Shown here: positions 5,653 to 18,856 of the stretch, piece by piece
How positions within the stretch are numbered: position 1 is the stretch's first letter
Layout of the letters: each line of letters starts with the position of its first letter
Virus record (IMG/VR): IMGVR_UViG_3300014208_000026
Location: 64,001-128,000 of that record
Direction: 5' to 3' (one strand)
Origin: a virus
Taxonomy: Duplodnaviria; Caudoviricetes
Length of the DNA: 64,000 bases
Made by a program: the position numbers and the translations under genes
The notes under the pieces: model-generated
The model's input: only the letters and a program-made list of their open reading frames with translations
What the model was told of the DNA's origin: nothing
The model's database searches: none

Positions 5653-7811
5653 TGAAACCTAAGAGTGCAAAGTCCAATCTGCCGTTTGACACGACTCCGT
5701 CCCTCGGCTCCAACTACGGCCTGGATGGTTTCGATTTCGACCTGGAGTATGGCGAGGGTGTGAAGGATAAGGCTTCTCTCCCCTCTGCCAGGGGCCTGTC
5801 TGGTTTGCCTGACGGGGTTGTCATGGGCAAGCCAAATATCGAGAAGTTTCCCGTAGGAGTTGTTCGGGCCTCGGAAGGCAACTTCGATTTGACAGCGTTC
5901 ATGTCTGAGCCTCAGTTGAATGACCTGGACTGGTTGGAGTTTGCTGAGCAAGACCTGGAGCGCCTTCCGGAGAATCCCATTCATATTATCCCCGAGTTGG
6001 TCGACGCTTGGGGGGTTGAACGGCGTACTGACGGTGTGAACAAGCGTCTCCCTTACCAGACCAAGGAAGCCATTGATCAGGCCCGTCCCAAGGTTGCCAA
6101 GCCTGGAAAGACGGCCAGCGAGATCAAGGACGTTGTCCGGCAGGCTATGCGCCGGTCCGCTTACGGTGAGCCTCTGGACAAGATTCTGAGAGAAGCGGCT
6201 CTGGCCCTCGGCCCCGATGCTGAGAAGGCCAAGACGGCTATGGCGGCTCTCAGGGCGGAACACGGCTTGGTTGGCAAGGTTCATATTCGAGCCTCGGTGT
6301 TCCCTGGGTGTTGGAACGGTCGTTTTGCGGAAGAGATTCGGAAGTACGCCTCGCAGGCTAAGTACGTGGTTGCGTCTCCTCATTGTGCGGGTTGCGTTCA
6401 CGCCCAGAACAACCACTGCGCGATTTTCAAGAAGGAGATCGTGGTCGACGTTCCGTGGGAACAGGCTCGTACTGCCTATGCCCCTCGTTTGGCGGCGGCT
6501 GGTCAAAAGGTCGCTTCGGACGGCAATGCAAAAGAGGCTTTGAAGGCCGCTCTCACTTCTACCCCCCGTAAGATGCAGTCCTCGCTTGGCCAGATTTTCC
6601 CGACCATCAAGACGGCAACTGGTGTGACCCCCGAAGAGGCTTTTGCTAAGCTGGCTTCCCTTTCCGCTCCGGTCCAGGAGAAGATCGGTATTGCAGACAA
6701 GCAGGCGGCTGAAGAACGAAAGCAAGTGCAGGTCCAGATTGCCAAGTGGCATAGGGCCGGTTTGCTCCCGAGTAAGGAAGAAGCTACTCGGCTGGTGAGA
6801 TCCTCGGCGGACCCCAGGAGTATTCTGAAGGCCGGAGCTGCTTTGATTTTAGCTTCCAAGGCCACTTCGTACAGCGGGTCGGGGATTGTAGTCGACACGG
6901 GAAAGACCGCTTCGCGTGGTCTGGCTTGGAGGGAGTTGGAGCGGGCGGAGAAGGCCAAGAAGGCAATCAAGGCCCGTGTAGAGAGCGATGCTTCCGAAGC
7001 CCTCGGGAAGATGGTCAAGGCCGGACTCCTGAAGGATGAAGAAGTTCGTCGAATCGTCGCCAAGCAGTTGCCCCCCGACGAACAAATGCGGTTGGCTACG
7101 GCTGTTGTGGCTCGCAGGGCTTCCACGGTAGCCCTCCCGCAGAAGACCAAGGCTGCGGCTGACTACACCGGAGCCGGAGAAAGGGCTCTGCCCGCTCGTG
7201 TGGCAGTCCCGAAACCGGCGGCATTCTCCTCACAGCATATTGCCAAGGTCGTGTCTGAGGCAAAGCGGTTGATGAACGCCGGACACGCTGGAAAGATGCT
7301 CGATGGGCTGCTGAAGGTTCATTTCTCCGGTGGTTTGCTGAAGGCGGCTTCGGTAGCGCTCAAGGAAGCCCGGGACGCCCACGAAGGTCTGGCCGGTCAC
7401 GTTTACGTGGATGCTTCCGTTTATGCTTCCCAGCGGGGGACTACAGGCTGCGACGCGGGGGCACTCCTGCATCGTACCAAGGGCACCAAGTTCCTGTTGG
7501 CTATGGATCGGTGCAACGGTTGCACGGCCCACAACGTAGAGGGCGTGTGCCAGAGGTACGGGAAGCAAGTAACCGCTTCAGTTCCCGTGGAGAACCCGAA
7601 GGGGTTTCAGCGGGAAATGATTCGGTTGGCTAACATTTCGGATTCGGAACGAACGGCTGAGTTGTTTGTGACGGACGGCGGGCAGGTTCTCGCTGAGTTC
7701 GGCGGGCTGTCGAACGCCCCCCTGGACGATATCGACCTGGATACCGCCCCGTCGTCCAAGGACCTCGGAGAGATTTTGTTCGGCGGACTCGATGCAGGGA
7801 GTGACGAATGA
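5652..7811 (+). CDS. Large hypothetical protein with a duplicated Cys-containing domain
   Basis: EHGLVGKVHIRASVF..CAGC..NNHC and AHEGLAGHVYVDASVY..CNGC..EGVC; translationally coupled to both neighbours. Confidence 0.75.
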   Translation: MKPKSAKSNLPFDTTPSLGSNYGLDGFDFDLEYGEGVKDKASLPSARGLSGLPDGVVMGKPNIEKFPVGVVRASEGNFDLTAFMSEPQLNDLDWLEFAEQDLERLPENPIHIIPELVDAWGVERRTDGVNKRLPYQTKEAIDQARPKVAKPGKTASEIKDVVRQAMRRSAYGEPLDKILREAALALGPDAEKAKTAMAALRAEHGLVGKVHIRASVFPGCWNGRFAEEIRKYASQAKYVVASPHCAGCVHAQNNHCAIFKKEIVVDVPWEQARTAYAPRLAAAGQKVASDGNAKEALKAALTSTPRKMQSSLGQIFPTIKTATGVTPEEAFAKLASLSAPVQEKIGIADKQAAEERKQVQVQIAKWHRAGLLPSKEEATRLVRSSADPRSILKAGAALILASKATSYSGSGIVVDTGKTASRGLAWRELERAEKAKKAIKARVESDASEALGKMVKAGLLKDEEVRRIVAKQLPPDEQMRLATAVVARRASTVALPQKTKAAADYTGAGERALPARVAVPKPAAFSSQHIAKVVSEAKRLMNAGHAGKMLDGLLKVHFSGGLLKAASVALKEARDAHEGLAGHVYVDASVYASQRGTTGCDAGALLHRTKGTKFLLAMDRCNGCTAHNVEGVCQRYGKQVTASVPVENPKGFQREMIRLANISDSERTAELFVTDGGQVLAEFGGLSNAPLDDIDLDTAPSSKDLGEILFGGLDAGSDE

Positions 7812-9184
7812 TGCAGAACCGAAAAGCCTATATCACCGACCGACCTGAGATGGCAGAAGACCTAGCCGCTCTGCTTGGATTGCTTCATGCCCTGTACTGG
7901 AATGGCTGGACTTCCCACTGGCAGTCGAAGGGGCCTACTTTCCTGGCAGACCATGACCTTTTTTCTCGGGTCTATACGGCCTATCCTGACGAGATCGATG
8001 CTCTGGCAGAGAAGACGGTAGGGTACTTCGGGATTGAGGCCGTGAACGTGTTCCCCCACGTTGAGCGATTCAAGGAGTGGTTGGATTCCGCCATGGAAAC
8101 GGCCGACCCCTTTGAGCGGGCTCTTGAGGGCGAGAATTCTCTGATCCTCTTTGCGGGGACTTTGCGGGAGAAGCTTGGGGACGACTTGGGTCTGTTCCCT
8201 GGTCTTGACGATTTCCTGACGGGACTGTGTGACGCCCATGAAACGAGTGTCTACCTTCTCCAGCAGAGGATCGGGGGAGATCAGGAGCCTGTCGTTACCA
8301 TCCCCGACGTGCCTGTAGAGATGGATCTTGACTCAGAGTGGCAGTCTATCCCTGAGCCTGGGGATGGCGTCCCTCCCGTTCTCGACGACAGTGCCTTGAC
8401 CGATGAGTTGGATTCCGAATGGCAGAAGGTCGGGGCCGCAGTGGCTCCCTCGGCTGAAGGTTTGTTTTTCAACAACCCCGAGCAGCGTGAGGTTCGGGAG
8501 TTTGCTCAGACAGGGGCTCCGTCGAACAACACGGGGATCGCAAAAGCCTCTCCCTTGGAAACCGGAGACGTGCAGGCTACTCCTCCGACTCCTTCCGAGA
8601 TTTTGGAGCAGCCTGGGGCGGACCAGTTCTCGACGCTCAATCGTTACTTGATTCGGACAGAGCAGCCTACGGATGAAAAGGTTACGCAGAGTCACGATGA
8701 ATTGCCGAAGCATCCCGATATGATGCAGCTTCAGGCTTCTTTGGAGCGGGATTGGGTCAAGCTGGCTGCAGCTTACCCCTCTATCATCACCGAGGCTAAC
8801 TGGGAAGAGTTTGAGGCGGGTGAAGGCATTTGGGAACGGGACGGGTTGAAGAGGGCTTGGAAGGGCTACAACGTTTCCATGACCTACGAGATTTACCAGT
8901 CTCCGGAAGAGGATGACGATGAGCCCGCAGATCCCGAGAGGGGCTTTGAGTTCAAGGACCGAAACTACGAGTACCTCGAAGATGCTTTGGACTCCAATTC
9001 TAACCGCAATTGGTTGGAGTGGTCCTCCTCACACCCTTCGAGCGGGGATTGGATTACAAGCGAGGACAGTGAGAACTACCGCACTGGGGAGAGGACTCAG
9101 TACTCCCTTTTCATCAAGCGGGGGGACAAAAACCCCCTGACCAAGTTGGAAATCGACTATATCACCGAGCAGTTCAGGTTGTAA
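7808..9184 (+). CDS. Dps/ferritin-like domain fused via an acidic linker to an unknown C-terminal domain
   Basis: HWQSKGPTFLADHDLFSRVY..DEIDALAEK matches the Dps signature HW...G..F...H..F..Y......D.LAE; HE in the last helix. Confidence 0.65.
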   Translation: MMQNRKAYITDRPEMAEDLAALLGLLHALYWNGWTSHWQSKGPTFLADHDLFSRVYTAYPDEIDALAEKTVGYFGIEAVNVFPHVERFKEWLDSAMETADPFERALEGENSLILFAGTLREKLGDDLGLFPGLDDFLTGLCDAHETSVYLLQQRIGGDQEPVVTIPDVPVEMDLDSEWQSIPEPGDGVPPVLDDSALTDELDSEWQKVGAAVAPSAEGLFFNNPEQREVREFAQTGAPSNNTGIAKASPLETGDVQATPPTPSEILEQPGADQFSTLNRYLIRTEQPTDEKVTQSHDELPKHPDMMQLQASLERDWVKLAAAYPSIITEANWEEFEAGEGIWERDGLKRAWKGYNVSMTYEIYQSPEEDDDEPADPERGFEFKDRNYEYLEDALDSNSNRNWLEWSSSHPSSGDWITSEDSENYRTGERTQYSLFIKRGDKNPLTKLEIDYITEQFRL

Positions 9185-9699: not shown

Positions 9700-9721
9700 C
9701 CTTTACATTCCGTCACTGTAG
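9700..9721 (+). promoter_or_regulatory. Putative late promoter
   Basis: T-tract then CCTTTAC-N11-GTAG, directly before the RBS of 9732. Confidence 0.35.
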
Positions 9722-9731
9722 GAGGAAGGCC

Positions 9732-10409
9732 ATGGCTGCGTCACCGCAGGCTATTGCAAGCAAACGTCTTTTGGTCGGTTTGGGCCCAGACGTGAAGCGT
9801 ATTCGTGTCATCAATAGCTACGGTCAAGAGACTTGGAGAACTCCGACTACCGTTGCCGATGCAGACGTGGTCATGACCAACGCCGAGGGCAAGCCCATCG
9901 TCATGCTCCAAGAGCCTGGGCGACCTAGGAAGGTTGAGGTCGAGCCGAATACCGAAGCTATTGCTGAGATGCTGCGGCTGAAGAAAGAGGAGGGGGGACG
10001 GTCCAAGATCATCAAGGCTCTGAAAGAGGACCCCGACTCCCTCAAGGGGTTGGATGCGCTCATCCTCGGTATGGCCGAAGAACAGGAATCTATCCGATTC
10101 GAACGCACGGTAGCCGAAAAGCACGGCAAGGATACGAGTACGCTGTCTATCCGCAGATCCCAGGCCCTACGTGCAATCGCTGAAACTTTGCTGAAGAAGC
10201 GGGAACTGGCTACGGCTAAGGAGATCGATCTGTCCAGTCCTACTTTCAAGGTTCTGTTGCGTTTCATCCTTGAGACTGTCCAGGAGGCCATGCGGGCGTC
10301 GGGTCTTCCAGAGGATGCAATCAACGACGTGTTCACCAAGTTCGGCAAGAAGATGAACGCTACGGAGTGGGAAGCAGATGCTAGACGGTCCATGAAGACC
10401 GCGAACTAG
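9732..10409 (+). CDS. Putative terminase small subunit
   Basis: Charged helical 225-aa protein directly upstream of the TerL cluster. Positional inference only. Confidence 0.4.
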   Translation: MAASPQAIASKRLLVGLGPDVKRIRVINSYGQETWRTPTTVADADVVMTNAEGKPIVMLQEPGRPRKVEVEPNTEAIAEMLRLKKEEGGRSKIIKALKEDPDSLKGLDALILGMAEEQESIRFERTVAEKHGKDTSTLSIRRSQALRAIAETLLKKRELATAKEIDLSSPTFKVLLRFILETVQEAMRASGLPEDAINDVFTKFGKKMNATEWEADARRSMKTAN

Positions 10410-10521
10410 GGAGGGGGAGATAGAAAGTGCTTTTCAGAGTTAGTGCCGATTCGTCCAACTGGGAGTTGGACGTTAGCTGGGCCATGGTGGCCCGGGAATG
10501 GCCTCAAGGAGGGGCCTTATA

Positions 10522-11676
10522 ATGTTGAGAGTTACAGAGTTCGTCGAGCGAGACCTGGGGTTCAAGTTGTTTCCGGTGCAGAAGTTTTTCCTCAGAATGG
10601 CTTATGGGGAGGCTCTGGACACCAAAGAGAAGTTCAAAGTCCCGCGAAGCTGGCACCTGGATAGCTTTTATGACATGACAGAGGCCGAGTATTTGCAGTT
10701 TCTGTACAACGAAGGGCGTTGCAATGCTTCGGAGCCAGACCCGTCCTTGAGAGACGTGTTTCTGGCAGGAGGCAGGCTCGGCTCCAAGTCAACCCTGAGC
10801 GCAATCCTATCGGCCTACGAGACATATAAGCTGATTCAAAAAGATAACCCACAGAAATACTACGGAATGTTGGAAGGGACGACAATTGACGTATTGTCTG
10901 TGTCTACAGACAAAGATCAAGCCGGAATGGTTTACCAAGAGGCGTCATTACTGCTGAGCCGCAGCGGGTACACCCGTCCCTATAGGGCACTTTCGACCCT
11001 GTCGTATACGAGGTTTCAGTCCCCCGCGGACGTCAGGCGTTATGGTTTTTTCCAGGGCCAGGAGGCGGGGTCTAAAGCCACTCTCCGTATGACTTTCAGG
11101 TCATGTATCGCAAAGGGTCTTAGGGGTCCTAACTGTGCCGCCGTGATTCTTGACGAGATGGCCCATTTTTGCGACGAAGGTCAGGGCTCAGCGGAAGCTG
11201 TCTACGACGCTGTGACCCCTAGTATCGCAAATTTCACTCCCAAAGACCCGACTGATCCGAGGATTGTGATCGGTCCTCGGGAGTCTAGTCTTTTTGTTCT
11301 TTCCACCCCCCTGATTGCCGTTCAAGGGGATGAGCCTGATTTCTTCTGTAGTTCGTACTCCAGTTCTTTCAAGTCTGGCGGGTGCCTATGCCTCCAGATC
11401 CCGACTTGGGAGCTTAACCCTGCTATTCCGGTTGGGGTGTATCAGAAAGCCTTTGAACGGAACCTCGCTACTTTCGAGGCAGAGTTCGGGGCGCGGTTCG
11501 TTACGCGGGAAAAAGTCGTGACCCCCTCATCCGGGATTTCTCGAATCAAGGTGCTGGTGCTCAGGTCGGGCGTAGAGACGTGGTTGCAGCTAGAAGGGCT
11601 CCAGGAGACTGACGTCATCCCCTTGAAAATTGATGGTACTCCTTTTATCGCAATGACCCGAACCGGAGATAACTAA
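10522..11676 (+). CDS. TerL ATPase-domain-only paralogue 1
   Basis: Collinear with TerL (KATLRMTFRSCIAKGLRG, VILDEMAH, QIPTWELNP, EFGARF). P-loop is GRLGSKS; no nuclease domain. Start chosen at ATG 10522 after AAGGAGG. Confidence 0.8.
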   Translation: MLRVTEFVERDLGFKLFPVQKFFLRMAYGEALDTKEKFKVPRSWHLDSFYDMTEAEYLQFLYNEGRCNASEPDPSLRDVFLAGGRLGSKSTLSAILSAYETYKLIQKDNPQKYYGMLEGTTIDVLSVSTDKDQAGMVYQEASLLLSRSGYTRPYRALSTLSYTRFQSPADVRRYGFFQGQEAGSKATLRMTFRSCIAKGLRGPNCAAVILDEMAHFCDEGQGSAEAVYDAVTPSIANFTPKDPTDPRIVIGPRESSLFVLSTPLIAVQGDEPDFFCSSYSSSFKSGGCLCLQIPTWELNPAIPVGVYQKAFERNLATFEAEFGARFVTREKVVTPSSGISRIKVLVLRSGVETWLQLEGLQETDVIPLKIDGTPFIAMTRTGDN

Positions 11677-11677
11677 A

Positions 11678-12628
11678 ATGCATGGAATCATCGAGTTCGC
11701 CGAGAAGAGCCTGAATATCCGTCTCTATCCTGTCCAGAAAGTCGTCCTCAAGACTATCTATGGAGAGCCTTTGGACGACAGGGAAGCCTTTAAGATCCCG
11801 ACCGATTGGAGACAAGAAAAGTATCTCTCCATGACAGAGGCAGGATACCTTCAGTATCTATATGAAGAGGGACGAAGCAACGTGAGGGAGCCTAATCCCG
11901 CACTCAAAAAATCCGTTCTCGTAGCCGGACGTCGGGTAGGTAAGAGTTTTCTGGAAACTATCATCATGAGGCACGAGATCCAGAAGTTGGTTTCTCCGGA
12001 TTTTGGAGATCCTCATGCTAGATATGGTTTGTCGCTGAATGACAAGATCAATGTTATATCGGTTACTCCAGGGAGTGATCTAGCCCGCTACATCAAGACA
12101 GAGTTCTGTGCTCTTGTTCCGGGAGTGCCTACTTACGGGGAGTCTGGGACAAGATTCCGGACTTCTGCTCTGAACAGTTCTCTGCGCTCCCCTGCGGAGT
12201 ATAACGTGCGGGCTATGTTCCTGTCTTCTTACTCTCCAGAAGTTTTGAGAGGTTTGAATGCCTATGTTTTGATTTTGGATGAGGCAGGGCATATGACGGA
12301 CAGGCAGTTGTGCGATATCACAAACGCTTGTGGTGCCTATGTGTTTTTTCCGAAAAAAGAGGGCAAGCCTAGCGGGCCTCTGGAGTCCAGAGTTGTCACT
12401 ATCTCCTCTCCTGGAAGGCCCTTTTACGATAAACGCAAAACACTATTCCAGCAGATATATGAGATAGATTTCAGAATGGGGACCAGTACGTGTTTCCAGA
12501 TTCCGACGTGGGAAATGAACCCCACTATCCCTGCCAAAGAGTATTCTAAGCACTATGACAAAGATCCTCTTATTTTTGAAATAGAGTTCGGGGCTAGGTT
12601 CTTGGAGTACAAGGAGACTCTTGTATAA
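11678..12628 (+). CDS. TerL ATPase-domain-only paralogue 2
   Basis: LYPVQK, Walker A GRRVGKS, LRG..VLILDEAGH, QIPTWEMNP; stops just after EFGARF. Confidence 0.8.
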   Translation: MHGIIEFAEKSLNIRLYPVQKVVLKTIYGEPLDDREAFKIPTDWRQEKYLSMTEAGYLQYLYEEGRSNVREPNPALKKSVLVAGRRVGKSFLETIIMRHEIQKLVSPDFGDPHARYGLSLNDKINVISVTPGSDLARYIKTEFCALVPGVPTYGESGTRFRTSALNSSLRSPAEYNVRAMFLSSYSPEVLRGLNAYVLILDEAGHMTDRQLCDITNACGAYVFFPKKEGKPSGPLESRVVTISSPGRPFYDKRKTLFQQIYEIDFRMGTSTCFQIPTWEMNPTIPAKEYSKHYDKDPLIFEIEFGARFLEYKETLV

Positions 12629-15600
12629 TGGCTGGTTTAGGTGACATAGCCCTCGACATTGGGCGCAAGGCTTCCACGGGGAAGGGTAGCGGCAAGATTG
12701 CCAACATCATCGACTTCGTCGAGTCTCCCTGGGGGTTGAAGGCCAGACTGTATCCTGTCCAACGGGTGATCCTCAAAGCCCACTACGGGATCCCCCTGGA
12801 TGACCGGAACAAGATTGTCAATCTCACGGATTGGCGCCGCGAAGATTCGCGCATGATGACTGAGGCTGACTATCTTAAATTTCTATTTGATGCGGGTAGA
12901 TGTAATATTAGAGAAGTAGATCATGAACGTAGAGAGATGATACTCTCGGTCGGACGTCGCTCGGGCAAGTGCAATTTGGGTGATAGTTTAATATTAACTA
13001 ATAAAGGTGTAACAAGAATAGATGCTCTAGGCGATCCTAACGGACCGGAGTTTCAGCCTCTCGAAATCGAGGTTGCCCAGGAAGCAGATAGAAAGGCGAT
13101 TTCGAAGTTTTTCTACAACGGGGGTGTGAAGCCCACCCGTACTTTGACCACTCGCTGCGGTTACAGACTTGGGGGGACGGACAACCATCGTATCAAGGTT
13201 CTGACCCAAGACGGCATAGTGGATTGGAAGTACCTTGCGGATATCCAGGTCGGGGATACCGTTTGCATTCACCGTAAGACGGACCTGTGGGCTTCCGAAT
13301 ACGTTGACTGCACCCCCTACTGGACAAGCGGGGGGTTGAAAAAACTCACTTTTCCGACTTTGTTGGACGAGGATTGGGGTTTCTTGTTGGGTCTTCTCGC
13401 GGGGGACGGAACCTGGGTTCACAAGACCGGCATAGAATTGACCGTGGCTGATATTGAAACCAAAATTCACGCTCGTGCCCTGTGGGATCAGCTTTTTGGC
13501 AGTCACAAAGAGCAGCAGGTTAAGGAATCTCCGATAACCAGTAGAGTGCAGTTTTTCAGTGTCGCTATGAGGCAGTTCCTTCACAACCTAGGCTGGGAGC
13601 TTGGCATTGCTCGGGACGCCAAGATGGTGCCCTGGTCCATCATGAGGTCCCCTAAGTCTGTTGTCCAAGCTTTCCTGCGGGGTCTGTTTGAGACGGACGG
13701 CGGGGTTGAATCTGGCGGTAAGGTCGTTTCATTCAGCACTGCGAGCGGCCGACTGGCCCGAGAAGTGCAAACTCTCCTTCTCAATCTGGGTATTGTCAGC
13801 CGTATCAAGCCGAAACCTATCAAGGGCAAGATTTACTGGATCTTGTGCGTCAGAGGGCTTCGGAGTCGGATTGCTTTTGCTGAACTCGTAGGATTCGACT
13901 CGCACAAGAAAATGGATCCCCTGCTGGCGTCGATTGAGGCGGCAGGGAAAGAAGGGAGCAATGCAGAAGGGATCCCGTACCAAAGACCCTGGTTGCGGAA
14001 ACTGTTGGAGTCTGTTCCTGCCCTTCAGGGCATTCCGGGGCACAAGCAGGAGTGGAGCCGGTCCAAGCTTCGGGCGGTATTAGGCAACACTCTCAAGCCC
14101 AGCACCGCTGAAGAAGTAACATATCCTATGTTGTTGAATGCCCTTCCCGTTGCTCGCTCCCTGGGAGCAGACCTTAGAATCATTGCCCATTTCGAGGAAC
14201 TTCAGCGCCTCGACTATTTCTTCGACCCCATCGAGACCATCGAGGAGGGGGAACATCCTGTCTACGACCTGAACGTGCCCGACGGGGAGTCTTTCGTAGC
14301 CAACGGGATGACAAACCACAACACGATGATCTCGGCTCTCATTTCCGTCTACGAGATGTACAAGCTGATCCAGAAGGGCAATCCGCAACACTACTATGCT
14401 CTTCCGCAGACCAACAACATTCAGATCATCTCGGTCGCTACGGACAAAGACCAAGCAGGAATTCTCTACAACGAGGCTTCCGGCTATTTCCGTTCGTGTG
14501 ATTTCTTCCAACCGTATACCGCCAACAACACCCTGTCCTATGCTCGTTTCCAGTCGCCCGAGGATATCCAGTTGTACGGTCCCTACGCTGAGGACCCTAC
14601 GGCCAAGGCTACTCTCCGCATGACCTTCCGGTCCTGCGTTGCGAAGGGGCTCCGTGGTGCTGGTAACCTTGTGGTCATCCTCGACGAGGTAGCCCACTTT
14701 ACGGATTCGGGGCAGTCCTCTGCTTCCGCCGTGTATGACGCTGTGCAGCCGTCTACCGCTACGTTCTTCCCGAAGGACCCGAAGGACCCTACGACCCCTC
14801 TCGGTCCTGGTGAGGGCCGTACCATTCTGATTTCTTCCCCGCTCGGTCGAGAAGGCATGTTCTACAAGCTCTTCGAGATCGGGTTCAAGGGCGGAGAGGC
14901 CGCCGAGAACATGCTTTGTGTTCAAGCCCCCACCTGGGAGGTAAACCCGACCGTTCCGGCCAGTGAGTTCAAGAAGCATTTTGCCAAGGACGCCAAGGTC
15001 TTCTTCACGGAGTTTGGGGCGGACTTCTCGGATCGTACTCGTGGTTGGATTGAACGCGAGAAAGACCTGACGGACTGTATTAAGCCGGATGCGAAACCGA
15101 CGTACAAGGCCGCTCCCAGACAGCCTCACTTCTTGGGTCTGGACGTCGGGTTGGTGAACGACGGTACCGCTATTGCCATCGGACACAATGAAGGCGACCT
15201 GATCGTCCTGGATATCATGGACTACATTCGAGCTGGAGAGGGCAAGTACGTTCACCACGAACGGTTGGAGTTTGAGGACGTGGCCCAGTGGGTTTACGAG
15301 TGGACTCGCCGTTTCCATATCAAAGAGGGCATTTTTGATAAGCACCTTGCAGACGTGATGGAGCAGTACCTGACTAAGAAGGGTATCGGGACGCTGGTTT
15401 CGCAAAGGTTCACTCCGCAGGAACGATCAGATGTGTACCAGTCGTTCAAGGATATGATGTACGACCGGAGGCTGGTCCTCTATGACGCTCCGATTGTTTC
15501 CGGAGAAATCCACTGTGCGTACATCAAGGAACTGTTGGAGTTGCAGGCAGAGACGCGCACCAAGTATATCACCGAGGTCAGAGCCCCGAATATCGAAGGC

Positions 15601-15834
15601 AAGCACGACGATATGTCGGACGCCTTGACCCGTATGGTCTGGTTGGCTTCTCAGGCGGCCTGTAAGACCCATCACATTGCTGTGACCAGCGGGGCTACCA
15701 GCAGGGACTACGTTCGTGACCCTATGTTGTCCTCATCGAGCAAAGCCGTTATGCGCCGTCACCGGATGACCCGTTCAGGGAGTTCTCCTGAGCGAATGAT
15801 TCCGAGGGGCGGGCGGCTTGGAAGGCGGTTCTAA
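12628..15834 (+). CDS. terL: Terminase large subunit with intein (617 aa after splicing)
   Basis: Walker A GRRSGK|T interrupted by an intein; Walker B VVILDE; RNase H-like nuclease HFLGLDVG..D...HDDMSDA. Confidence 0.92.
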   Translation: MAGLGDIALDIGRKASTGKGSGKIANIIDFVESPWGLKARLYPVQRVILKAHYGIPLDDRNKIVNLTDWRREDSRMMTEADYLKFLFDAGRCNIREVDHERREMILSVGRRSGKCNLGDSLILTNKGVTRIDALGDPNGPEFQPLEIEVAQEADRKAISKFFYNGGVKPTRTLTTRCGYRLGGTDNHRIKVLTQDGIVDWKYLADIQVGDTVCIHRKTDLWASEYVDCTPYWTSGGLKKLTFPTLLDEDWGFLLGLLAGDGTWVHKTGIELTVADIETKIHARALWDQLFGSHKEQQVKESPITSRVQFFSVAMRQFLHNLGWELGIARDAKMVPWSIMRSPKSVVQAFLRGLFETDGGVESGGKVVSFSTASGRLAREVQTLLLNLGIVSRIKPKPIKGKIYWILCVRGLRSRIAFAELVGFDSHKKMDPLLASIEAAGKEGSNAEGIPYQRPWLRKLLESVPALQGIPGHKQEWSRSKLRAVLGNTLKPSTAEEVTYPMLLNALPVARSLGADLRIIAHFEELQRLDYFFDPIETIEEGEHPVYDLNVPDGESFVANGMTNHNTMISALISVYEMYKLIQKGNPQHYYALPQTNNIQIISVATDKDQAGILYNEASGYFRSCDFFQPYTANNTLSYARFQSPEDIQLYGPYAEDPTAKATLRMTFRSCVAKGLRGAGNLVVILDEVAHFTDSGQSSASAVYDAVQPSTATFFPKDPKDPTTPLGPGEGRTILISSPLGREGMFYKLFEIGFKGGEAAENMLCVQAPTWEVNPTVPASEFKKHFAKDAKVFFTEFGADFSDRTRGWIEREKDLTDCIKPDAKPTYKAAPRQPHFLGLDVGLVNDGTAIAIGHNEGDLIVLDIMDYIRAGEGKYVHHERLEFEDVAQWVYEWTRRFHIKEGIFDKHLADVMEQYLTKKGIGTLVSQRFTPQERSDVYQSFKDMMYDRRLVLYDAPIVSGEIHCAYIKELLELQAETRTKYITEVRAPNIEGKHDDMSDALTRMVWLASQAACKTHHIAVTSGATSRDYVRDPMLSSSSKAVMRRHRMTRSGSSPERMIPRGGRLGRRF
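12970..14322 (+). mobile_element. Intein with LAGLIDADG endonuclease in the TerL P-loop (451 aa)
   Basis: Starts CNLGDSLI, block B GTDNH, LLGLLAGDG and FLRGLFETDG, ends YDLNV..FVANGMTNHN; +1 residue is Thr. Confidence 0.92.
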
Positions 15835-15836
15835 CC

Positions 15837-16085
15837 ATGAGCGCACTTTCCCCAAAGAGTCCTATCAGGGCGGATCACCGAGTGATCTGGAAAGTTGTGA
15901 AGCTGACAGGCGGGAACGGGGCTCTGCGAATTGACAGTGAGATGACTCGCATCTCGAACGTCTTTCGAAGGCTGGGTGGGTCCTGGACGGGTTTCTTCAA
16001 AGGGAGCATCGACGATGTGACTCTGTTGAAGAAGGTGGTGCGGTTCGCTATGAAAAAGGGATACGTGACGAAGAGTTCTGAGTAA
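15837..16085 (+). CDS. Small hypothetical protein
   Basis: ORF fills the gap between terL and 16104. Confidence 0.55.
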   Translation: MSALSPKSPIRADHRVIWKVVKLTGGNGALRIDSEMTRISNVFRRLGGSWTGFFKGSIDDVTLLKKVVRFAMKKGYVTKSSE

Positions 16086-16103
16086 GAAGGTAGAGTAGAG
16101 ACT

Positions 16104-16430
16104 ATGAGTAAGATGCGGGCCCGTCTATCTTCCATGGAAAACGATAGAGAGGTGCAAAGCCATGTAGCCGAGGCCGAAAGTGCCTTGGCGAAGGCAATGC
16201 AAGTTGCCAGGGCTGCATCGGGAGAGGCTGGTTCTGCTCAAAGGACACGTTCGGTTGCCGTGATTCGGGATATCGAGAGGGCGTTACATGCCCTGTCTGG
16301 AATCCGGAGAATCGGGGGGATTGATCTTACCGATGAGGATTTGATGGGTTCGGAGGAGAGAAAGAAGGTACGGGAGGCACGAGCGGTTGCCCGTGACGAA
16401 AAGACTCAACGTGCTCGAAGGAGTGCTTAA
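16104..16430 (+). CDS. Small helical hypothetical protein
   Basis: ORF directly upstream of the portal gene. Confidence 0.55.
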   Translation: MSKMRARLSSMENDREVQSHVAEAESALAKAMQVARAASGEAGSAQRTRSVAVIRDIERALHALSGIRRIGGIDLTDEDLMGSEERKKVREARAVARDEKTQRARRSA

Positions 16431-16432
16431 CT

Positions 16433-18304
16433 ATGGCTGTCCAAAAACCGCGTACACGTCGAGTGTCTATCGTTGGGAATCGAGGGACCCCCCGGAGGGT
16501 CGTGGCAGGGGCCATGCGGTCGAACGGGTTGGAGGGGGCTGTTGAAGTCTCTAAAGTAAAGCCTCGTCCGGCAACCCTGGGCCGTCCCGCCGTCAGGACG
16601 GGAAAGCCAGGGAAGATTGCCTCTGGCTCGATGCGGTTGGGTACTTCCGCTTTCGGCATGCCCGGGATTGGGAACTCTACGATGGGGCAGGGAGGTAACT
16701 TCTACTCCCCTGAGTTGTCGACTGACTTTTTGGAATTGCCGCAGAGCAGGGACGAAGAACGAAACTACTATCGGTTCTTCTACAAGCACGATCCTTTCGT
16801 CGGTCAGGCTATTGACCTCCAGACAGATATTCCGCTCTCGAAGATTCGATTGGGTAAGCCTGAGATTCCAGAGTTTGATTTGGACTATTTGAACAGCCCC
16901 GAAGGAAAGGAATTCTTGAAGGGGGCGGACAAACTGGCCAAGCAGTCCCAGCGGTTCTGCAAGAAGTGGAACCGTAGGATTCACTTGCTGAAACAACTTC
17001 TGGATATCTCCCATGATTTGAACCTTCTCGGTGAGGTTTTCGTTTTCATAGAGGACGACAATCCAGAGATGCCTGACGACGTGAGATACAACACGGTCCT
17101 GGCGATTGATCCCGAAGGGGGGGAGCCAGTAGAGCAGAAGCATGAGCGCGAAGACGCGGATGAGCGGGCCTACGAGTGGCTCCGGACGCATTACAAGGGA
17201 TGGACCGCCATGCGGGTTCTGCCGCCCGAGCAGATCAGTATGAAGTCTTTCCCCTTCACTGACGAGAGGCTCATCCAGCTCATTATTGATAGTAAGACCA
17301 AGGATCTCGTGAACCAAGCTATGGCGGGGGATCCCGACTCCCAGCGGATCATGGAAAGTCTGCCTGAGGATGTGGTTAATGCTGTGCTAGAAGGGGTCAA
17401 CATTCCTTTGAACACGGACCCTGAAGCAGGATCTTTCGTACATTATATATCTCGTCGTAAGTCTCAATATGAAGAGAGAGGCACTTCTGTATTATCAAGA
17501 TGTATAAGAACACTTGTTTTTATGGACAAATGCCGTCAGGCAAATACTTCGATTGCATCTCGTCATATGACACCTATGCGTATTGTTTGGGTTGAAGATG
17601 GCGATGCGGCTGATGTTGAAGAATTGCGTGAACAAGTTGATATGGCGCTTCAGGACCCCGACTATTCGATCATCACGAACTATCAGGTCAACTGGGAGGA
17701 GATGGGGGCGGAGCAGCGGCTTCTGGATCTAACTAGTGAGTACGAGCGAGCAGACCGTATGTTGTATGCCGGTCTGGGAGTTACGGAGTCGCTGTTGTCC
17801 GGTGAGTCCTCCTACTCAGGGGATAGGATCAACCTGGAGGTGATCAACACCCGTTTCATGCTCTTCCGCGAGTTGATGCAAGAGTTTGTCGAAGAGCACC
17901 TCTACGCTCCGATGTGTCGCCGGATGGGTTACGTGGTCACGGACGAGTGGGGGGACGAGATTCCGCTGGTTCCTGGACTGTCCTTTACTCGACTGGCTCT
18001 GCGGGACAATGCGGACACGTTCGACTCCATGCTGAACCTCTACCAGAAGGGCAGTTTGGATATTGACGTGATCCTGGAACTCTTGAATATCGATCCCGAG
18101 ACGACCCGCGAGAAGCTGAAGCGGGATCTGTTCACTCTCCAGGACGCCACCTTCAACGAACTTCTGCGTAGCATCTACAACGACGCGGCTCAGAAGCTCA
18201 ACGACAATTCCAACATGATCGACCTCATGGCGAAGAAGATGGGGATCGACGGGCTGGTGTACAAGAAGGCACAGGAAGAAGGCGACGGTCGGTTCGGCGG
18301 CTAG
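16433..18304 (+). CDS. Portal protein
   Basis: 623 aa just downstream of TerL; FYKHDPFVGQAIDL..IPLS, RGTSVLSRC, LGVTESLLSG.S.YS are portal-like motifs. Confidence 0.75.
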   Translation: MAVQKPRTRRVSIVGNRGTPRRVVAGAMRSNGLEGAVEVSKVKPRPATLGRPAVRTGKPGKIASGSMRLGTSAFGMPGIGNSTMGQGGNFYSPELSTDFLELPQSRDEERNYYRFFYKHDPFVGQAIDLQTDIPLSKIRLGKPEIPEFDLDYLNSPEGKEFLKGADKLAKQSQRFCKKWNRRIHLLKQLLDISHDLNLLGEVFVFIEDDNPEMPDDVRYNTVLAIDPEGGEPVEQKHEREDADERAYEWLRTHYKGWTAMRVLPPEQISMKSFPFTDERLIQLIIDSKTKDLVNQAMAGDPDSQRIMESLPEDVVNAVLEGVNIPLNTDPEAGSFVHYISRRKSQYEERGTSVLSRCIRTLVFMDKCRQANTSIASRHMTPMRIVWVEDGDAADVEELREQVDMALQDPDYSIITNYQVNWEEMGAEQRLLDLTSEYERADRMLYAGLGVTESLLSGESSYSGDRINLEVINTRFMLFRELMQEFVEEHLYAPMCRRMGYVVTDEWGDEIPLVPGLSFTRLALRDNADTFDSMLNLYQKGSLDIDVILELLNIDPETTREKLKRDLFTLQDATFNELLRSIYNDAAQKLNDNSNMIDLMAKKMGIDGLVYKKAQEEGDGRFGG

Positions 18305-18315
18305 TTTTTTTTTTG

Positions 18316-18337
18316 CCTATAGGGTCTGTCTGGGTAG
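18316..18337 (+). promoter_or_regulatory. Putative late promoter
   Basis: T-tract then CCTATAG-N11-GTAG; nearly identical to 55874..55895. Confidence 0.5.
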
Positions 18338-18361
18338 GTGAGTTTCTTAACTTGAAAGGTT

Positions 18362-18856
18362 ATGACCATGACGACCCTGAAGAGCGCGTGTGTGAAGTTG
18401 GCGTATGAGAATCCGGAACTCCGCCCTCTGCTGATGCCTCTGCTGCGAAGCAAGACGGCAACCGAATTCCCCTCAAAAGAGGCTCTTGAGAAGTACCTCA
18501 AGGATCACCCCGGGGCAAACCGGTCGAACCATAAAGTTGTCGAGAACAAGGGTAAGGGAGAGGCCAAGACTGAGGGCAAAGAGGATTCTAAGGCTGTCTC
18601 CATGTCTCGTGAAGGCTACAAGGCTATTGCAAATTCCCTCCGTGGGTTTGGCAGTTCAGGTTCTTGGGAGCACGTTATTTCCTATGCCATTTCGGATAAG
18701 CCCATGGAAAGGAAGCACGTGGATAAGGTTCTTTCCGACATCAACGGGTATCTGAAGAACTGGAAAGCAACCTCCGAGAGTAACCGTTGGGGGGACAGGG
18801 ACAAGAAGAGCCTGACTCGGGCCAAGGGCATTCTGGAGAATTGGTCCAAGAAGTAG
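18362..18856 (+). CDS. Basic hypothetical protein with N-terminal PELR leader (start may be 18368)
   Basis: TLKSACVKLAYENPELRPLLMPLLRSKTA. Confidence 0.75.
   Translation: MTMTTLKSACVKLAYENPELRPLLMPLLRSKTATEFPSKEALEKYLKDHPGANRSNHKVVENKGKGEAKTEGKEDSKAVSMSREGYKAIANSLRGFGSSGSWEHVISYAISDKPMERKHVDKVLSDINGYLKNWKATSESNRWGDRDKKSLTRAKGILENWSKK

Follow-up and report, generated by a model that had tools for sequence, protein, structure and literature searches.

Optional ATPase-only paralogues of the large terminase, possible modulators of the terminase complex, in a huge groundwater phage

Main

We describe two genes, P1 and P2, that lie in tandem directly upstream of the gene for the large terminase subunit (TerL) of a groundwater phage and encode proteins resembling the TerL ATPase domain without its nuclease domain. 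They were found in a stretch of 64,000 nucleotides (the window), which comprises bases 64001-128000 of the 257-kb IMG/VR virus record IMGVR_UViG_3300014208_000026. As a 257-kb record with a CheckV completeness of 49%, it is a fragment of a huge phage. TerL is, to our knowledge, the one protein common to all tailed phages, and it is both assumed to be a homo-pentamer and a main target of bacterial pattern-recognition immunity. We provide evidence that P1 and P2 belong to a large and ancient family of ATPase-only proteins, and suggest that they may be optional TerL look-alikes acting on the terminase complex late in infection.

Results

Two ATPase-only genes precede the TerL gene

The gene order at the locus is a gene of 225 amino acids (aa), P1, P2, TerL, two small open reading frames (ORFs) and the portal gene. 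The features of P1, P2 and TerL are given below, with motifs of P1 and P2 placed by alignment.

10506..10512, + strand: Shine-Dalgarno-like AAGGAGG, 9 nt before the P1 ATG at 10522
10522..11676, + strand: P1, 384-aa ATPase-only TerL paralogue; ATPase domain aa 1-328, then a 56-aa tail
10768-10791, + strand: P1 P-loop, GGRLGSKS
11116-11133, + strand: P1 arginine finger, GLRG
11143-11160, + strand: P1 Walker B, VILDEM
11299-11310, + strand: P1 C motif, STP
11482-11499, + strand: end of the P1 ATPase domain, EFGARF
11678..12628, + strand: P2, 316-aa ATPase-only TerL paralogue, by similarity to TerL and PHROG match
11924-11947, + strand: P2 Walker A, canonical, AGRRVGKS
12242-12259, + strand: P2 arginine finger, VLRG
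12269-12286, + strand: P2 Walker B, LILDEA
12401-12412, + strand: P2 C motif, SSP
12584-12601, + strand: P2 EFGARF
12628..15834, + strand: large terminase TerL, 1068 aa, by ATPase and nuclease profile matches
12628-12969, + strand: TerL ATPase N-extein, by profile and alignment
12970..14322, + strand: intein of 451 aa, Cys115 to Asn565, +1 Thr, with LAGLIDADG homing endonuclease, by Pfam, NCBIfam and alignment
14323-15030, + strand: C-terminal part of the TerL ATPase domain, by profile and alignment
about 15028-15831, + strand: TerL RNase H-like nuclease domain and basic C-terminal tail, by nuclease profile

By BLASTP, P1 was 46% identical to TerL over 290 aa (E 3e-76; 40% in the N-extein), P2 matched TerL on either side of its intein at 32% (E 4e-29) and 43% (E 1e-23), and P1 and P2 were 35% identical to one another (E 3e-58). 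All three proteins matched PHROG terminase-large-subunit families. Using ATPase-domain and nuclease-domain profiles built from the family, we found that P1 and P2 each match the ATPase profile end to end, with similarity to TerL ending at the EFGAxF boundary and only 56 (P1) or 6 (P2) residues beyond the domain. An earlier note on this DNA, made from its letters alone, had described two intact, coupled, intein-free and nuclease-less TerL paralogues before the true TerL, and the BLASTP matches, the profiles and the overlaps of starts and stops agree with that description. Its statement that similarity is lost at EFGA.F, before the RNase H domain, also held, as neither P1 nor P2 matched the profile of the RNase H-like nuclease domain, which matched only the third ORF (12628-15834); alignment likewise confirmed the P-loops it had read as GRLGSKS in P1 and GRRVGKS in P2.

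The adenine-binding LxPVQ motif, the Walker B Asp-Glu pair, the trans-acting arginine finger and the C motif are present in both proteins. P2 fits the Walker A pattern GxxxxGK[ST], and P1 has a serine in place of the glycine before the lysine (GSKS versus SGKT). Among four other members of the P1 subfamily examined, three have GRR[SG]GKT, and the fourth (P0038) has GRRGGAT, with no lysine. In a profile-to-PDB alignment, the arginine of the LRG motif aligns with Arg139 of the P74-26 TerL, the residue mutated in structure 4ZNJ, and the Asp-Glu pair stands at +10/+11. A profile match to a TerL ATPase domain of known structure reached E 3e-9.

AlphaFold modelled P2 with a mean predicted local distance difference test (pLDDT) score of 93, and P1 with pLDDT >90 to residue 330 and about 50 in the tail. 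The top PDB matches of the P2 model were the TerL ATPase domains of P74-26, followed by those of HK97, PhiV-1 and T4 (Foldseek, E 1e-8). Neither protein had a match in local Pfam, NCBIfam or PADLOC scans; among precomputed matches, PF27249 (MJ0330_N) is listed for P2 and also for its short relatives and this clade's TerLs, and the local Pfam scan gave no PF27249 match.

The signals for translation suggest that the three genes are expressed together. The AAGGAGG site 9 nt upstream supports the P1 start at 10522 proposed in the earlier note, the P1 stop codon TAA is followed after one base by the ATG of P2, the P2 stop overlaps the TerL start in the sequence TAATG, and Shine-Dalgarno sites are present for P1, P2 and TerL. 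On this arrangement we predict that P1, P2 and TerL are translationally coupled. Read-through or a frameshift fusion of the three ORFs was ruled out, as the reading frames differ and every ORF is preceded by a Shine-Dalgarno site of its own. Nor do P1 and P2 represent a split TerL, since a complete TerL comes after them.

The locus is also supported by independent assembly. We located the phage in the groundwater metagenomes of two studies (public runs), and the region including the P1/P2 junction was recovered on independent contigs from both with zero differences. An assembly chimera or artefact was thus ruled out, as independent contigs cross the junctions. Across window 9700-18400 the same phage was observed in the second study, which dates from a different year, and the covered parts are identical. 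P1 is identical to database protein P0011. The second-study contigs are identical over both genes and so offered no polymorphism for estimating the ratio of nonsynonymous to synonymous polymorphism (pN/pS) in P1 or P2. No RNA dataset was listed among the runs that contain the phage. For the corresponding substitution ratio (dN/dS), the nearest homologues are at most 48% identical, so that synonymous sites would be saturated, and pattern searches of IMG/VR, when made with P1 or P2 alone, yielded no close relatives.

P1 and P2 belong to a large family of short TerL-like proteins

A phmmer search of the full library with P2 gave 507 matches, and we analysed the best 150 clusters, represented at 50% identity. 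About 80 of these clusters are ATPase-only proteins of 290-390 aa, whose match to the ATPase profile runs from position 11-13 to 336-338, with 0-20 further residues before the C-terminus. Full TerLs account for about 64 others, either of 590-680 aa or, with inteins, of 900-1700 aa.

Phylogenetic analysis of the ATPase domain united 73 short forms, with no TerL among them, in a single clade (Shimodaira-Hasegawa-like support 0.96); its sister, with support 0.99 in the first of the trees, was the TerL clade containing those of the window, of locus L007 and of LR745208. P1 belongs to a basal subfamily whose members are 365-384 aa long, and P2 falls elsewhere, beside a stand-alone protein. Because the tree places them in separate old subfamilies, P1 and P2 are not recent duplicates of their own TerL, and they are members of two old subfamilies within a large, ancient and intact family. 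The local paralogy implied by the earlier note, in which P1 is close to TerL, is thus not supported by the tree, whereas its view that the genes are more than debris is supported by conservation across the family. We found no description of this short-form family in the literature on TerL paralogues in jumbo or huge phages or on 'MJ0330'.

Members of the P1 subfamily share a C-terminal tail, LGxDGIxVxKxPGGxWxVTTG. There is a faint resemblance between the tail (window 11506-11673) and the nuclease domain of TerL at its first beta-hairpin (LGLDVGLVNDGTAIAIGH), and the tail may be a vestige of that domain, in a part where the model has low confidence.

Sequence motifs are retained unevenly across the 80 short forms. 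LxPVQ, PTWExNP and E[FY]GAxF are retained in 85-96%, the Walker A lysine in 69, the Walker B glutamate in 63 and the arginine finger in 48. In TerLs, the Walker B, arginine-finger and C-motif residues are found in every sequence aligning at those positions; TerL counts for Walker A are blurred by intein misalignment. As catalytic residues have so often been lost, binding, and not hydrolysis, is probably how many members of the family work. Measured from the common ancestor, divergence amounts to about 1.9 substitutions per site in the short forms and 0.78 in the TerLs.

Two terminal features common to the TerLs of this clade, the peptide GLxxIALxxGR at the N-terminus and a basic tail at the C-terminus, are both missing from the short forms; the median length before LxPVQ is 18 residues in short forms versus 42 in TerLs. 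The TerL of phage lambda docks onto the small terminase (TerS) and the portal through its termini. If the lambda rule holds here, P1 and P2 would be bare cores, able to meet ATPase cores, ATP and DNA but not to dock as TerL does.

Short forms are optional and have arisen repeatedly

The window TerL is 58% identical to the single TerL of LR745208, the nearest GenBank relative, which has neither P1 nor P2. The earlier note took absence or decay in close relatives as the mark of neutral duplication debris; the genes are indeed mostly absent from the nearest relatives, but they belong to a family that is large, ancient and intact.

A short form is wedged between a homologue of the 225-aa gene and TerL at several loci: the window (two), L007 (P0005, 319 aa, before an intein-free TerL of 641 aa), L102 (324 aa), the contigs carrying P0033 (317 aa, before an intein-bearing TerL) and L169. 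As the L102 short form and P0033 form one subclade (support 0.99), the wedge position has been inherited there. L007 also has, downstream of TerL (11140-11586), a 148-aa ORF that is 38% identical to TerL nuclease residues 408-508, including GxDVG, and is a partial nuclease-domain paralogue beside an ATPase-only one.

The L169 wedge (154-1584) has a different origin. Its 373-aa short copy ends 10 nt before TerL, shares 73% identity with the N-terminal part of that TerL and has the insertion specific to that lineage; it groups with TerLs, outside the large short-form clade, and its finger arginine is already a lysine. The copy is a young, independent duplicate and looks like a snapshot of how such genes arise. 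Because this duplication is younger and independent, short copies appear to arise repeatedly, and a few other short forms also nest within other TerL clades in the tree.

Elsewhere, free-standing short forms adjoin UDG, NUDIX/NADAR, 2OG-Fe(II) oxygenase or methyltransferase genes. In a 381-kb genome, the short form lies 54 kb from TerL, with histidine at the finger position and Asp-Gly at Walker B. Tandem short forms, a degenerate one of 280 aa and a P1-type one of 380 aa, were observed in L091 (6109-8143) and L090, with no TerL downstream.

The TerL intein and the neighbouring genes

The TerL insert was identified as an intein by Pfam (Intein_splicing 1.2e-11; LAGLIDADG_3 6.5e-21) and NCBIfam (intein_Cterm), and has splicing blocks, Cys1, a terminal His-Asn, a +1 nucleophile and an endonuclease domain. 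Alignment with intein-free TerLs places it after the Walker A lysine (GRRSGK|C...HN|T). Neither P1 nor P2 contains an insert, and Pfam intein matches among the three proteins were confined to TerL. Many TerLs of the family are 900-1700 aa long, which suggests one to three inteins per gene. On the contig carrying P0033, a downstream gene of 1085 aa has a faint LAGLIDADG match.

Two further features complete the packaging module.

9732..10409, + strand: conserved 225-aa gene, TerS candidate by position only
16433..18304, + strand: portal protein (phrog_16240 portal protein, E 6e-31), which closes the packaging module

The 225-aa gene had no match in Pfam, PHROG, NCBIfam or PADLOC. In L007 a homologue precedes the terminase genes, and homologues of 190-290 aa across loci L009-L175 abut the TerL start at 63 of 83 loci of the IMG/VR set (gap -3 to +14 nt) and in most of 80 metagenome loci. 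Judged by position only, this gene family is likely to be an unrecognised small terminase of these huge phages. In LR745208, the junction between the TerS-like gene and TerL holds a 433-aa TnpB-like ORF with RDLNAAINL (L001 5596-6897), and this site looks like a hotspot for insertions. A 458-aa ORF immediately before the packaging module (window 7808-9184) matches a PHROG 'DNA binding protein' at its N-terminus (E 2e-7), followed by a long acidic low-complexity region.

Discussion

The reading that we favour, to which we assign a probability of roughly 0.38, is that P1 and P2 are optional TerL look-alikes that act on the terminase complex late in infection. They would be genuine, selected, nuclease-less paralogues of the TerL ATPase drawn from an accessory gene family of huge phages, and would be made together with TerL because the three genes are translationally coupled. 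They may bind the partners of the TerL ATPase core, above all the interface that TerL presents to its neighbouring subunit, and so would modulate the assembly, ATPase or cutting activity of the terminase at that stage without being obligatory parts of the motor. The repeated creation and inheritance of such genes upstream of TerL, together with translational coupling, points to a role with TerL.

Several observations weigh against this reading. Ten large genomes with this family of TerL were compared, seven with a completeness rating of 90% or more, and nine of the ten had only TerL; a short form was likewise missing from almost all of about 150 TerL loci. Many members of the family are distant from TerL, among nucleotide-metabolism or unknown genes, and these copies are just as compatible with a role in conflict or one independent of packaging. 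Evolution is about 2.4 times faster in the short forms than in TerL, the P1 P-loop does not follow GxxxxGK[ST], and the loss of catalytic motifs means that an ATP-driven function in a ring is not general to the family. The interaction of P1 and P2 with TerL is itself inferred only. A complex prediction for the intein-free pair from L007 (P0005 with TerL P0009), with alignments as input, scored 0.01; it was run without controls and carries no weight either way.

The same patchiness and speed bear on whether these proteins serve instead to evade immunity, as look-alikes directed against the TerL-sensing Avs1-3 and Upx that either titrate the sensors while leaving them inactive or shield TerL at its ATP-site face. 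A patchy, fast-evolving, recurrently invented and often catalytically degenerate family shows the typical pattern of conflict genes, co-translation with TerL would supply the proteins exactly when the trigger appears, and EcAvs2 and Upx recognise TerL by its ATPase domain (PMC13601566). However, isolated TerL ATPase domains and T4 vs.8 activate EcAvs2, and TerL ATPase domains alone activate Upx (PMC13601566), so that a plain extra copy would be a liability rather than a shield. These data count against a simple decoy; the patchy distribution and rapid evolution would suit a binder that masks TerL or does not activate the sensors. P1 and P2 matched no PADLOC or known anti-defence family, and no adjacent anti-defence genes were identified, and we regard immune evasion as an unlikely, if serious, alternative. 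The other main rival, quite unlikely in our estimate, is that the proteins are stand-alone ATPases serving a DNA- or nucleotide-dependent step of replication, repair or injection, with adjacency to TerL a relic of duplication. The many free-standing members beside UDG, NUDIX, NADAR, 2OG-Fe(II) oxygenase and methyltransferase genes with no TerL nearby, and nucleotide-binding motifs that are mostly kept, would suit such a role, but short tails excepted there is no extra domain for a new substrate, a sizeable minority have lost catalytic residues, and at least one subclade has kept the wedge position by stable inheritance, while in L169 the position was created anew.

A more specific proposal combines regulation with concealment. 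Here ATPase-only paralogues, invented repeatedly in unrelated phage lineages, would be co-translated guards that use the native ring interface to pair with TerL, placing their arginine-finger face on the TerL ATP site, and the pairing would both restrain the terminase and hide the ATP-site face read by Avs2-type sensors; taken jointly, these claims are improbable. Mixed rings in which TerL, P1 and P2 are all obligatory motor subunits might be expected from the retention of the arginine finger and Walker B in P1 and P2 and from the coupling of the three genes, yet packaging proceeds with no short form in relatives that have the same TerS-like gene and a TerL of 58% identity, and the short forms are without the conserved terminal peptides of TerL, which makes an obligate heteromeric motor highly improbable. 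Least credible is that P1 and P2 are neutral duplication debris in decay. The off-consensus P-loop of P1, the lack of both genes in LR745208 and the nuclease-domain fragment of L007 would fit decay, but neither ORF is truncated, each has a ribosome-binding site and a confidently predicted fold, and old, species-rich subfamilies hold exact domain boundaries across sequences less than 50% identical. Debris is thus largely refuted by conservation across the family. Of the three functions raised in the earlier note, a heteromeric motor is therefore unlikely because the genes are optional, and a simple immune decoy is weakened by the activation of sensors (PMC13601566), which leaves a regulator or look-alike as the best guess.

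Nuclease-less copies of the TerL motor domain arose independently in huge groundwater phages, in P2/186-type phages and in T4-type phages, and the short forms of the huge phages have long been maintained as a large family; together these facts point to a general use for a TerL look-alike. The window offers a good test case, as it combines two subfamilies, one intact and one altered P-loop, and co-translation of both with an intein-bearing TerL. A function for the phage 186 gene or for T4 vs.8, as analogues, would distinguish motor regulation or mixing from protection of the terminase against immune sensing.

Comparison with known systems

The fold and, apart from the altered P-loop of P1, the motif set of P1 and P2 are those of the TerLs of P74-26 (PDB 4ZNI/4ZNL), HK97 and T4 (gp17). 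In contrast to these, P1 and P2 have no nuclease domain or terminal peptides, and are separate genes beside a complete TerL. Packaging ATPases of the phi29 gp16 type also work without an active nuclease. However, gp16 is the sole motor ATPase of its phage and has a vestigial C-terminal domain, whereas P1 and P2 sit beside a complete TerL and are optional.

Phage 186 offers a parallel: its 248-aa gene between the terminase (Orf12) and the portal, annotated as 'similar to Orf12', encodes a free-standing duplicate of the TerL ATPase domain that shares 37% identity with TerL residues 125-371. It overlaps the TerL gene within the packaging operon. Unlike P1 and P2, it is present as one copy, sits after TerL instead of before it, and descends from another TerL lineage (P2 type). 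T4 vs.8 is a TerL-ATPase-like protein of 219 aa with Walker A and B, present in some phage taxa only (PMC13601566). It resembles P1 and P2 as a free-standing paralogue of the ATPase domain of its own TerL, but is a shorter protein encoded in a region of early or non-structural genes. Membership of P1 and P2 in the vs.8 family was rejected (hhalign probability 7.5%), and vs.8 is thus an analogue rather than a relative.

Stand-alone paralogues of the TerL ATPase were therefore already known, from phage 186 and T4 vs.8. New, as far as the searched literature goes, are the size, age and patchiness of the family in huge phages, its wedge position before TerL, the evidence for repeated origin, and the presence in one genome of two subfamilies in tandem next to an intein-bearing TerL.

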